Assembly (NCBI GenBank): GCA_951406725.2
Contig: OX597815.1
Coordinates: forward strand, 40,672,001 to 40,736,000
Direction of reading: 5' to 3'
DNA length: 64,000 nucleotides
DNA from: Octopus vulgaris
Lineage: Eukaryota
Shown one piece after another: positions 13,133-64,000 of this stretch. Each line of letters opens with the position of its first letter. Positions within the stretch are counted from its first letter, which is position 1. A model generated the notes under the pieces. The model had not been told where the DNA came from. It ran no database searches and saw only the letters and a program-made list of their open reading frames with translations. Made by a program: the position numbers and the translations under genes.

Positions 13133-13620
13133 ATTGTACATTATTTACATTTGACAGATATTTATCCTCATCTTGTTTGTTGTTAACACAATTTTTTGGC
13201 TGATGTACTCTCCAGCCTTCATCAGGTGCCCTGGGGGAATTTCAAACCTAGATTCTCATTCCTAAGATATTTTTCCGATGTTATTATTATTATACATGTC
13301 ACTGCCTGGAAATGAACTCGGAATCTTGGTGTTAGTATAGTAGCCCGCACTCTTAACCCCGATGCCATATGCCCGTGGGCAATTATGGAGTGAATTTTAG
13401 GGCTTATAAATCTAATATTTTCCTATCCTTCCTTAACACCGGTTCCCATATGCTATTCATATCTGCTCTAGATCATATGGCGTAGTGGTTAAGAACGCAG
13501 GCTACTAACCCCAAGATTCGGAGTTCAATTCCAGGCAGTGACCTGAATAATAATAATAATAATAATAATAATAATAGGAATGATAACCCAGGTTCAAAAT
13601 TACCCCAGGACATTTGAGGA
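13133..13620. mobile_element. Divergent inverted pair of tRNA-headed SINE-like elements with hammerhead-like 3' part
   Basis: Plus copy 13474-13620 has A-box TGGCGTAGTGG and B-box GAGTTCAATTCC. Minus copy 13133-13371 is homologous and contains cac-CTGATGA-aggctg...cagcc. Confidence 0.7.
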
Positions 13621-13624
13621 ATAG

Positions 13625-14415
13625 GATGGGCAAAGTTCAGCGTGCTACTACATTTGTTAGTAATGAAGGCCCTCTCTCTCAGAGTGAAAGGCAGATTGTA
13701 TGATGTCTGTGTTTGAACAGCTATGCTACATGGCAGTGAGACTTGGGCTGCAACTACTGAGGATATGCAAAGGCTTGAAAGAAACGAAGCCAGTATGCTC
13801 CAATGAATGGGTAATGCCAGTGTGCGTATACGACAGAGTGTAAGTGATGAGAGAAAACTGGGTGTACAAAGCATCAGATGTAGCATGCAAGAGAGAAGAC
13901 TGTGCTGGCATGGCCATGTAATGCGTATGAATGAAGACAGCTACATCAAGAAGTACTGACCTCAAACTGTAGAGGGAACGTGGGGAAGGGGTAGATCCAG
14001 GAAGATGTTGGATGAAATGGTGAGAAAGGATCTACAGACATTGGGACTCACAGAGGGGAAGATAGGGGATTGAGGCTCCTGGTGTTTTGTTGTGCTTGAG
14101 AAGACACATCAAGCTAAGTAAAAGCATGGTTATCCTTGCATACAGATTGTTTCTTGCATCCCTTTCCAGTTGAGCATTCCTAACCTTGCAGGCTCATGGG
14201 TGCTGGTGCTGTGTAAGAAGCACCCATACTATTGCCACATAAATGCACTGATATCAGTGCTGCATAAAAGCATCCAGCACATTCTGTAAAGTGATTGGAG
14301 TTAGGAAGAGCATCCGGCCGTAGAAACCATGCCAAGACAGACATGGAGCCTGGGCAGCTACTATCAAACCATCCAACTCATGCTAATATGGAAAACAAAT
14401 GTTAAATAAAGATGG
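13625..14415 (+). mobile_element. RTE LINE 3' fragment
   Basis: KGRLYDVCV..AMLHGSETW and RRLCWHGHVMRM motifs, degraded. Confidence 0.75.
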
Positions 14416-60889: not shown

Positions 60890-63582
60890 AAAATAAACTA
60901 GAATAATAAAGTAATTAATTAATAAATATACTTTAATATATATATATATATATAAAATACTAAATATATATTAAGTGAAAACTAAAACAATACTTAAATT
61001 ATTAAATACTTTAAAATTAATTAATATACACAATGCTAGTACAAGTCATTAAATTGTAATCAAAATAAGAAATGGTTCAAATATAGACAAACTCATTAAA
61101 TAAGCTAACTATATAATTAATATACATGTGTAGTATCTATAGATTTAATATATATATTTTTTTTAAATAAATATTTATTATAGTAATATAAATTAATTTC
61201 AACATAATATATATGTATTTGATTTAATTACTTATTATTTAGACTTTAAATTTATAGTAAATAGTCATTTAAATTTAATGCTATATTAATTTTATGTACC
61301 TATATTTTACATTTAACTTATCTTTAGTATTATTAAACCTTATTTCGTCTTATGTGGTTTATCTATTTATTGTAATATCATTTAATAGTATTAGAGTATA
61401 TTTTACTATTTTATTATATGTTATATTAATATTTTATACAAAATGATGAATATTTGTTGATTGTGAGTTTGAGATGAGTTTGGGCTTCATGTATTGGAGA
61501 CTATTGGAAGGGTTGAATGGTAGGGGTATAGTCGGCTGTGAATAAATTTGGTGGTAGTTGGCAGTTTGTTGTAGTTTGGGTTAGTGGTAGTGATGGTAAT
61601 AATTAATAATGATAATAGTAATGGTGATGATGATGATAATAATAATGATAATCGTGTACGGCTTGATGTAGGGTCCAGGTATTTTTGATGAACAAGTAAT
61701 ACTTATACTATTTTTATTAATTTTCTTTGATTCATGAAGTTTAGATAATTCCTGTATTTTTCATTAATAAATTCCTTTTAGTCATTTTCATTAATAATTT
61801 TATTCTATTTTTCCATGCAACATCTCCACGAGTTTTATTTCTTATAAACGTTAAGAACTATTCTTTACATTTATAATCTAGTGGTATTTTCTCAACTAAC
61901 TAAGCAATGTTCTTTTCTCCATTTTGTTTGGATTTTGTATTGTTTTGGGATTAATATTTAGCTGTTGTTAATATTGTTATTGATTTATTAATAGGGGTCT
62001 GTTAGTTATAGTTGGGTGTCTTCATGGTAGTTTCTCCATAAGTTGTGTTTTTTCTCACATTTCTTTAGTTCATGAGGCTTAAATGCTTTTTTTTTTTTTC
62101 ATATTTTTTCATTGATAAAAAAATTTGCCATTTTCATTGAGTATTATTCTATTTCTTTGCACTAAGTCTTCACATGTTAAATTTTATAAATGCTTTAACT
62201 ATCTTATGTTTAAAATTCAGTTACTTTTTTCCTTTGCAAAGATAAGTTACATTTGACATTTTATCGTTTATCGTTTTCATTTGATTTTGGAATTGTTTTG
62301 GGTTTGAAATTATTATTATTATTATTGTTGTTATTATTATTATTGTTGTAATATTATTATTTATTTATAGTTTCTTGATAGTTATTTTTTATGTTCGCTA
62401 TTAGATATGATATCTTTTAATTTTTATATAGGAATTTAACGTTTTACATATTATTTAATTTGAGAATTAGTTTCGTTAGACTATATATTTTTTTTAATAA
62501 TTAGATAATATTTTTATTAAGTAGTATTACATTTAAGTAAACTAGTTTTTATTTTAATATCAATTTTATGTTTAACTTTATTATCGTGTGAAATATTAAA
62601 TCTATAGATATTAATAATATAATTAGTTTATATAATGGATTTGTGTATATTTGAACTATTTCCAATTTTCGATTGTATTATTCATGACTAGTTGGGTGTT
62701 TACACATAAGACGCTAAAACATATTAATACTTTTAAAATCCAGATAGATTAATTTAATTTAATTGATGAACTTAGTAATATAGTTTGTTTACCAATATTA
62801 TTTGGATCTTGTATTATTTTGAGTTTGATCGTTGTTATTATTATTATTGTTATTGACTGGATTTGTAGTGGACTGGTGATTGTGATTGAAAATATTCATA
62901 GTGTATTGTTCATTGGTTCTAATATTTTTGCACCTTTCTTTAATTTTTGGAGCTAAAATGTTTCTTACTTTCCATTAGCAAATAATTCTCGCCATTATAT
63001 CATTTTTATATATATTGATAGATATTAATTCTTATATCTATTTATTTAGATTTATATATATATATATAACCCATGCCAGCATGGAAAGCGGACGCTAAAC
63101 GATGATGATGATGATGATGATATATATAGATATATATAGAAAAGGATCTAACATATTAAATTTAATTTAATTTGAGAATTAATTTTGTTAGACAATATGT
63201 TATCTAATTATTAGGTAGTATATTATGTAGTATTAAATTTTAAGATAATTAGGTATTATATTAATTGATATTTAGTCAACTATATTATAGATTGATATAT
63301 TAAATCTATAGATACTACACATGTATATTAATTATATAGTTAGCTTATTTAATGAGTTTGTCTATATTTAAACCATTTCTTATTTTGATTACAATTTAAT
63401 GACTTGTACTAGCATTGTGTATATTAATAAATTTTAAAGTATTTAATAATTTAAGTATTGTTTTAGTTTTCACTTAATGTATATTTAGTATTTTATATAT
63501 GTATATATATATATATATATATATATATATATATATTGAAGTATATTTATTAATTAATTATCTTATTATTCTCTTTTATTTT

Positions 63583-63686
63583 TAACCTGATGAGTGGCTA
63601 TATTTATATCGAAGTGATTTTACTACTACTATTAATTTTTTTACTATAATCATTTCTTAAATATAGCCACGAAACAGGTGTTGTTA
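63583..63686 (+). ncRNA. Minimal type-I hammerhead ribozyme (intact core)
   Basis: taac CTGATGA gtggctatattta...taaatatagccac GAAA C AGGT G TT gtta; 13-bp perfect stem II base, 4-bp stem I, GUU cleavage triplet. Confidence 0.8.
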
Positions 63687-64000
63687 TTCTACCAATTATA
63701 TACGTTTTTATTATTTTTTTTGCAATTTACTTAATCACTGGTATTTTATTGTAATTTTAATATTTCTATTGTATGTAATTTTCTAGATGGTGTAATTTAA
63801 TTGTTCATTTTGAATTGATAAAAGGTGGTTTTTTTCTAATTTTTTATATATATATATTATATTGTGTGAAATTTTATTTAGTATTTCTAAATTGAATTTT
63901 TTCCCTGTAAGTTAGGATTAATATTCCCTCAAATAATCATTATATATATATATATACATATTATATAGAATTTATATATAAATGTATAATATATTATATA

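Follow-up and report, generated by a model that had tools for sequence, protein, structure and literature searches.

Hammerhead-bearing fold-back loci in the Octopus vulgaris genome are probably 5'-truncated ends of Penelope-like elements primed on both target strands

In a 64-kb stretch of the AT-rich, 2.8-Gb genome of Octopus vulgaris (positions 40672001-40736000 of contig OX597815.1, hereafter the window), a sequence-only reading had described seven loci with hammerhead ribozyme motifs, mostly within fold-back inverted repeats. Our analysis indicates that these loci, together with an eighth, are probably 5'-truncated 3' ends of Penelope-like elements (PLEs), each abutting a second, inverted 3' end in head-to-head fashion, likely because reverse transcription was primed twice, once on each strand of the target. 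The origin from PLEs is read from coding frames upstream of the motif in three families and would extend to the others.

Each of the eight loci belongs to a dispersed repeat family that carries a type I hammerhead motif; the families are labelled by window position as F13, F16, F20, F39, F44, F58 and F63 (13.2, 16.7, 20.7, 39.2, 44.1, 58.4 and 63.6 kb). The additional locus at 14.4-14.8 kb is a sister of the 44.1-kb locus, both belonging to F44, and F39 and F63 are 70-78% alike over 177-397 nt and have a common 3' tail. Thus, while the hammerhead-type motifs and inverted repeats first described are corroborated by descriptor, shuffles and family membership, the loci at 39.2 and 63.6 kb are not unrelated as had been stated, and that at 44.1 kb has a sister that had been missed. 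The arms are as follows, with residues in hammerhead numbering.

13135..13472, minus strand: F13 long arm, with the last codons of a putative Penelope/Poseidon-type GIY-YIG frame, a tRNA-like stretch, (AAT)n, a hammerhead and a short 3' end.
~13185-13230, minus strand: F13 long-arm hammerhead of the GAAA-CG-UU type, with G12 and helix III mutated.
13473..13621, plus strand: F13 inverted arm, with the tRNA-like stretch and (AAT)n, stopping at the ribozyme core.
14423..14560, minus strand: F44 left arm, with a decayed hammerhead and a short 3' end at (TA)n; absent from the earlier description.
14574..14780, plus strand: F44 right arm, with a long 3' tail; C3 and loop III are mutated.
16445..16760, minus strand: F16 left arm, a putative Hydra-type PLE 3' end; long end with a 150-nt tail.
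16646-16718, minus strand: F16 left-arm hammerhead, with G16.2 mutated.
16760..16895, plus strand: F16 right arm, short end at (TA)n, CUGAUGA with a 3-nt deletion; head to head with the left arm, no unique spacer.
20622..20715, minus strand: F20 left arm with the short end and AUGG/CCAU as stem I; core mutated to CUGUGGA, family loop III of 5 nt (UUNAA).
20737..20870, plus strand: F20 right arm, long end, with G12 mutated.
38885..39062, minus strand: F39 left arm, in which the ribozyme itself is absent.
39088..39430, plus strand: F39 right arm, core intact at 39210-39281, helix II short by ~28 nt, loop AUAU (family GUAC), ending at (TA)n.
44075..44200, plus strand: F44 single copy with an intact core and AUAU loop, an extra C before the core and ~22 nt of helix II deleted.
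58366..58417, minus strand: F58 left arm, cut short at a microsatellite with loss of its 3' half.
58433..58540, plus strand: F58 right arm, cleavage triplet changed from GUA to GCA.
60603..61153, minus strand: F63 inverted arm of a putative Hydra-clade PLE, short end, with C3 mutated and loop AGUU.
61115..63925, plus strand: F63 main arm, running from the last GIY-YIG codons through ~2.45 kb of AT-rich 3' untranslated region (UTR; 22% GC) to the hammerhead, a 95-nt tail and (TA)n.
63587-63682, plus strand: F63 main-arm hammerhead with loop AGGU (family loop ACGU).

The link to PLEs is provided by longer copies of F16, F63 and F13, in which a Penelope-like reverse transcriptase (RT)/GIY-YIG frame, recognised by motif and similarity, lies directly upstream of the ribozyme motif. 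Among 30 F16 RT loci, counted with 1.5-kb flanks that cut some copies off, the F16 ribozyme follows downstream in sense in 17, an inverted copy lies upstream in 14, a direct copy upstream in two and an inverted copy downstream in none; the geometry is outward as at the window loci, with the frame between the arms. In F63, a Hydra-type endonuclease match precedes a window-like UTR in sense at 12 of 25 loci, with the RT farther up, and the 60.6-63.9-kb element begins at the last codons of an F63-type RT/GIY-YIG frame. The interior of its main arm before the ribozyme is 3' UTR, and we therefore rejected the notion of a non-autonomous insert. In one F13 locus (L429) a thumb and GIY-YIG frame is followed by the tRNA-like stretch and then by a ribozyme remnant. 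The F16 and F63 proteins have YRDD and lack CCHH; by eye, motifs of the Hydra clade are seen as SDKT and IRW (for the DKT and RWK-like motifs) in two F16 frames (L237/L242) and as CxxC and CxH, near the conserved E and N, in the endonuclease alignment. The CxCX5C linker is present in F63 and absent in F16, which has an Asn-rich linker instead, while two F13 frames (L428, L429) show, also by eye, GIY-YIG with CCHH-type residues and no zinc-finger linker. These motifs suggest that F16 and F63 are of Hydra type and F13 is of Penelope/Poseidon type. The best named match of a family protein is from Argonauta hians, and the family motifs match Hydra-1_Obim. A first look across the genome gave 12,770 RT candidates; frames reach 908 aa. 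The PLE origin proposed by the sequence-only reading is thereby supported for F13, F16 and F63.

The coding frames also bear on two other origins. Miniature inverted-repeat or Foldback DNA transposons, or chance motifs within such inverted repeats, would fit the hairpin shape and the TA-rich flanks, but most family loci are solo at the ribozyme level (110 of 156), the arms are unequal in length at both ends, motif counts exceed controls ~100- to 180-fold, and the coding link refutes such an origin for F13, F16 and F63; we regard it as extremely improbable. Non-autonomous retrozyme-like elements spreading as self-cleaved circular RNA are a highly unlikely source as well. Non-LTR retrozymes share the type I hammerhead and a PLE link, most octopus copies are short and have no frame, and other parts of the genome hold tandem arrays of ~590 nt that contain such motifs (L347, L352, L354). 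However, retrozymes are defined by tandem non-coding monomers (PMC7229834; bioRxiv 10.64898/2026.07.22.740005), whereas the window loci are not tandem, only one of the 156 family loci is, and the variable 5' ends run into PLE frames in longer copies. The suggestion of a largely non-coding or retrozyme-like population is therefore not supported, three families having coding parents. The arrays at L347 (G000:C1:10835000-10840500), L352 and L354 are near-identical, with long-helix-II matches at the same ~590-nt spacing, and are possibly young retrozyme-like or partial-tandem PLE arrays. Partial tandems with direct pseudo-LTRs (pLTRs) were found at L224, at two of the 30 RT loci and at L340, and at none of the window loci.

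To count the motifs we used a strict descriptor (CUGANGA, 8-100 nt, then GAAA-C-N4/5-G-UH or GAAA-CG-UH, with stem I of at least 3 bp). It matches twice in the window (39210 and 63587) and in none of 30 block-wise dinucleotide shuffles, which shows that the motif is not equally frequent in shuffled sequence. Scattered stretches totalling 400 kb gave five matches (mean of 0.125 in shuffles), and 200 kb of flanks gave two (0 in shuffles). A genome-wide search, as the sequence-only reading had proposed, was run with exact patterns, which check core letters and not stems; a few of the listed matches look like chance. The first pattern gave 158 matches against 1 in the control; cores with a 31-60-nt helix II spacer numbered 13,495 against 76, and those with 61-90 nt 4,766 against 48, in total ~18,000 against 124. 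A pattern confined to at most 40 nt of helix II failed to find most window loci, and an Rfam scan of the window returned no hammerhead family, only AT-repeat microRNA noise below gathering scores. The families differ widely in first-look candidates (F13 2841, F16 1819, F20 178, F39 957, F44 233, F58 26, F63 3101), the best 26-40 of each being scored. With a profile library biased to the window's own families, we counted 13 hammerhead-family arms in the 64-kb window, 50 in 40 scattered 10-kb stretches, nine in 200 kb of flanks and none in a reversed control. The arm density of the window is ordinary for the octopus genome, and not that of an unusually dense population as first proposed; a rough extrapolation gives relics of the order of 10^5 genome-wide. 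Many of the matches in the scattered sample belong to a very abundant GAAA-CG-UA minimal hammerhead family with a helix II of 12-13 nt (L048 ~2818-2859 on the minus strand, L394, L114).

At the family level the type I core CUGANGA/GAAA/UH with helices I-III is present. The motifs had been called minimal; in the window families only helix III is, with helix II measuring ~20 nt in F13 and F20, 33 in F58, 54 in F16, 68 in F44, 77 in F63 and 81 in F39. In 25 related motifs of 53-58 nt, 92.3% of the helix II cells are paired, two-sided changes are found at nine of 25 pairs (six of the 11 basal pairs), and the covariation score is 0.304, compared with 0.197 in shuffled and at most 0.114 in slid alignments. 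This covariation suggests that the structure is under selection in active lineages. In 19 of 24 clusters the commonest loop III is a palindrome; ten different ones are used, and the chance is 1 in 16 each; the loci were chosen without regard to loop sequence, and the clusters are partly dependent. The palindromic loop III first noted is thus seen in most clusters, while F63 has ACGU as its family loop, read in 12 of 16 readable copies, and not AGCU as had been assumed. The predicted self-duplex energy is -10.3 kcal/mol with the ACGU loop and -1.6 kcal/mol with AGGU. In F39, where the family loop is GUAC in nine of 12 readable copies, the AUAU of the 39.2-kb copy is likely derived by two CpG-type transitions that kept the palindrome.

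We then turn to the arrangement of the arms, tabulated for 156 family loci with 1.5-kb flanks, window copies and one duplicate excluded and arms sorted by midpoint. This gave 110 solo, 44 outward, two inward and one tandem arrangement, one locus falling into two classes; solos are overstated, since inverted arms of tail only escape the ribozyme profile. Among 100 listed matches with 31-60-nt spacers, same-family neighbours within 5 kb formed, by eye, 11 outward, three tandem and no inward pairs. In the window, minus-left/plus-right polarity is found at seven of eight loci, that at 44.1 kb being a single copy. The fold-back polarity described earlier therefore stands, with the correction that a ribozyme-derived copy occupies both arms only at the 14.5, 16.7, 20.7 and 60.8/63.6 kb loci. 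The 5' ends are variable, the arms abut without unique spacer, the tail is at one end only (from ~25 nt in F13 up to 70-150 nt), and the (TA)n flanks already noted are seen in most families.

When the F16 arms of 40 records were placed on a natural copy as reference, 25 arms ended at 3650, 25 at 3793-3797 and seven elsewhere, which defines two sites 150 nt apart. These records contain 19 fold-backs: 13 pair a long with a short end, none pairs long with long or short with short, and six are broken or uninformative; junction gaps lie between -16 and +5 nt. Seven of the 13 long-short pairs are non-nested, with each arm holding sequence that the other lacks, and in five of these seven the inverted arm consists only of tail sequence absent from the main arm. 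The same pairing was seen by eye in 26 of 30 pairs of seven other families (F39 3/3, F44 4/4, F13 7/10, F20 2/3, F58 1/1 and two further families 5/5 and 4/4), two of the 30 being unclear, and it is also present at the 14.5, 16.7, 20.7 and 60.8/63.6 kb window loci.

A PLE origin would also be retained if the inverted arm arose from self-priming or snap-back copying of one strand, as proposed for head-to-head junctions with an antisense template (Arkhipova 2013, PMC3846280). Junctions often overlap by a few bases, and six of the 13 F16 pairs are nested, the short arm falling within the long one, an outcome that self-priming could also produce. The non-nested pairs argue the other way; in five of them the inverted arm is made of tail missing from the main arm, and a cDNA copied back on itself could not supply a tail that it lacks. 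Because F16 pairs long with short ends, never like with like, and seven of 13 pairs are non-nested, the data favour two priming events; self-priming as the only route is, in our view, unlikely. This fits an Anolis PLE, which cuts and extends both strands and starts reverse transcription at two RNA sites bounding its tail (PMC11167929), an analogy from a lizard element with which two priming events in octopus would be in line.

Several results weigh against our interpretation. Besides the nested F16 pairs, two of the ten F13 pairs look short with short. In the fetched flanks no sense frame is tied to F20, F44 or F58, F39 is linked only through its likeness to F63, and the one weak endonuclease match of F58 (E 3e-4) did not recur in a profile search. 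Pfam leaves the Hydra-type and F13 frames uncalled and gives a weak RVT_1 match on the F16 frame (E 0.0012), so that the clade labels rest on motifs read by eye. The number of helix II pairs with two-sided changes does not exceed that in shuffled alignments, 40 of 500 of which attain it, and the 25 motifs are related. At the copy level, core conservation gives no support for function of the copies: the core is kept better than its surroundings in three of seven families, equally well in two (F16, F63) and worse in two (F39, F44). This uneven conservation fits neutral decay after insertion.

Priming on both strands would proceed as follows. The GIY-YIG domain would cut AT-rich DNA on both strands; one target strand would prime at the distal RNA site and yield the long end, the other at the proximal site and yield the short end. 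Both cDNAs would stop early and be joined at their 5'-truncated ends, with an overlap of 0-7 nt in most cases. In the parent element the loop III palindrome would allow the ribozyme to act as a dimer, either within tandem transcripts or in trans and perhaps with protein, whereas a sense-antisense hairpin would bury it in the fold-back.

The window copies themselves are predicted to be inactive and decaying. Thirteen of the 15 window arms fail the strict descriptor, with broken cores or loops, and the two that pass are impaired otherwise, the 39.2-kb copy by loss of ~28 nt of helix II and the 63.6-kb copy by its non-palindromic loop. As judged from the letters, no window copy is an intact consensus ribozyme. 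The predicted fold-back hairpins pair 63-89% of their bases. Self-cleaved RNA from these loci, which the sequence-only reading had considered a potential product, is unlikely, because the cores are mutated and sense and antisense copies are predicted to pair in a hairpin and not as a sense-sense dimer; long double-stranded RNA (dsRNA), the other product considered, is plausible if the loci are transcribed. Activity of such PLE hammerheads is described as low, with dimers or protein needed (PMC4209133, PMC11167929, PMC6765202). An RNA-type contig of depth 2.4 at 14477-14513, in the left arm of the 14.5-kb fold-back, has four A-to-G differences, a weak hint of editing for which an allele or error is also possible. 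RNA contigs at 16.4-16.9 kb belong to other family copies, and none crosses the fold-back. We read the window loci as decayed scars of insertion, and nothing in them points to a host function.

Part of this picture is known. 5' truncation with an adjacent head-to-head inverted copy belongs to the insertion unit of endonuclease-containing (EN+) PLEs (PMC3846280; PMC4209133; PMC8557442), and thus the stereotyped fold-back inferred by the sequence-only reading had already been published. The octopus loci share with that unit also the tail at one end only, the hammerhead in the pLTR, microsatellite targets and Asn-rich inserts in frame (PMC3846280; PMC8557442). They differ in tail length (~25 nt in F13 to 70-150 nt here, 30-40 published), in the long-short pairing counted here and in the 2.45-kb 3' UTR before the F63 ribozyme. 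The Hydra clade of Craig 2021, which includes Hydra-1_Obim of Octopus bimaculoides, has the same DKT and YRDD motifs, lack of CCHH, CxxC before a conserved E and (TA)n targets, and for F63 the CxCX5C linker and CxH; F20 resembles motifs listed for Hydra magnipapillata in its stem I AUGG/CCAU and 5-nt loop (PMC8557442). In contrast, the published clade has few families outside cnidarians, elements below 3 kb and a helix II of ~12-22 nt in the rows compared (PMC8557442), whereas octopus has the 12,770 first-look RT candidates and long frames described above, helix II of 54-81 nt, and in F16 an Asn-rich linker in place of CxCX5C.

Metazoan PLE minimal hammerheads agree with ours in the type I fold, in a short stem I with an additional base ahead of helix II, and in a loop III that is either palindromic or missing; they too reach massive copy numbers and form opposite-strand pairs 100-700 bp apart, and F13 is of their GAAA-CG-UH kind (PMC4209133). 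The descriptor for these ribozymes allows a stem II of 3-7 bp and a loop of 3-10 nt, so that forms with 31-90 nt lie outside it (PMC4209133): F16, F39, F44, F58 and F63 (33-81 nt) exceed this range, while F13 and F20 are about within it. Two spike-moss PLE-X1 motifs with a long helix II of ~50 nt are a precedent (PMC8557442). The Anolis Poseidon element PAc resembles the octopus families in vitro in its two 3' ends bounding the tail, its AT-rich targets and the cutting and extension of both strands; it belongs to a different clade, and in the parts compared the two sites are not tied to the two arms of inverted insertions (PMC11167929). PLEs are abundant and recently active in O. vulgaris in a report whose main text leaves ribozymes unmentioned in the sections consulted (PMC13282606).

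LINE-1 twin priming is comparable in that a template primed twice yields an inversion whose arms abut or overlap. The octopus fold-backs differ from it in their fixed second priming site and in the frequent duplication of the 3' end by the arms. Overall, the fold-back architecture, PLE hammerheads and a Hydra-clade family in octopus were already known, while the large long-helix-II hammerhead class and the counted long-short end pairing seem to be new. A full-text literature search, in the portions available to it, returned no report of a large animal class with long helix II, although Lunse, Weinberg & Breaker 2017, which it did not cover, may list such or octopus motifs, and no report of a counted long-short end rule.

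The tRNA-like stretch of F13 (13290-13380, minus strand, and 13474-13545, plus strand) lies in the 3' UTR between stop codon and ribozyme. It is found upstream in 22 of 49 F13 copies, and in 600 kb all three matches stand beside an F13 core. It has what we take to be A- and B-box-like motifs, Rfam gives no tRNA match for it, and it could be an internal RNA polymerase III promoter. An independent tRNA-derived short interspersed element was rejected for F13, as the upstream sequence runs into the GIY-YIG frame and the tRNA-like stretch occurs, in those 600 kb, only beside the F13 core. DNA upstream of one F13 copy was likewise rejected as its parent, being an unrelated long interspersed element (LINE) at the (AAT)n tract. 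The (AAT)n of F13 copies is where a LINE with a restriction-type C terminus, presumably R4/Dong-like, ends (L401, L412, L419, L179), which suggests that it targets this tract. PLE-like frames near some F13, F39 and F58 copies were left unused as they lie on the wrong strand or side or are not tied to the copy. F16-type frames L237, L242 and L218 have a long Asn-rich linker between RT and endonuclease; N-rich inserts are described in Adineta Penelope elements (PMC3846280). A further young family (L196-L203) has a 781-aa RT and GIY-YIG frame with a CxxC-type linker, open in many copies and preceded by a second frame of 250-480 aa; a strict scan of its repeats found no hammerhead.

Elsewhere in the window, a transcribed last exon at 10937-11780 has a motif that we take to be RluA-like and is without a Pfam match. 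A spliced NAP/SET-type gene, with GT-AG joints in three or four runs, lies at ~26810-30200. Because of these two, the 13-21 kb loci appear to lie between genes. At 30-60 kb, 30 candidate frames examined for host genes gave only an RT fragment and one weak match. Other common repeats in inverted pairs, and a tandem array with a 62-bp unit, lie at 41097-41682, 41684-43950 and 8877-9380; none has a match in the hammerhead scans or profiles.

How PLEs make inverted and tandem insertions and what the hammerhead does for them are named as open questions by Craig 2021 (PMC8557442). A doubtful idea is that the loop III palindrome, like a retroviral dimerisation signal, hands two RNAs to a dimeric RT-endonuclease whose subunits prime opposite strands at different fixed sites. 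If so, the pairing of one long with one short end would be explained, helix II, long and covarying, would serve as a handle for protein and not a catalytic need, and the many hairpins would represent a large built-in source of dsRNA for adenosine-to-inosine editing in octopus. Animal hammerheads whose helix II is long form a large class that standard descriptors overlook, and in the octopus genome, with its thousands of young copies, long open frames and two sharp 3' ends, counting alone can separate two-site priming from self-priming.

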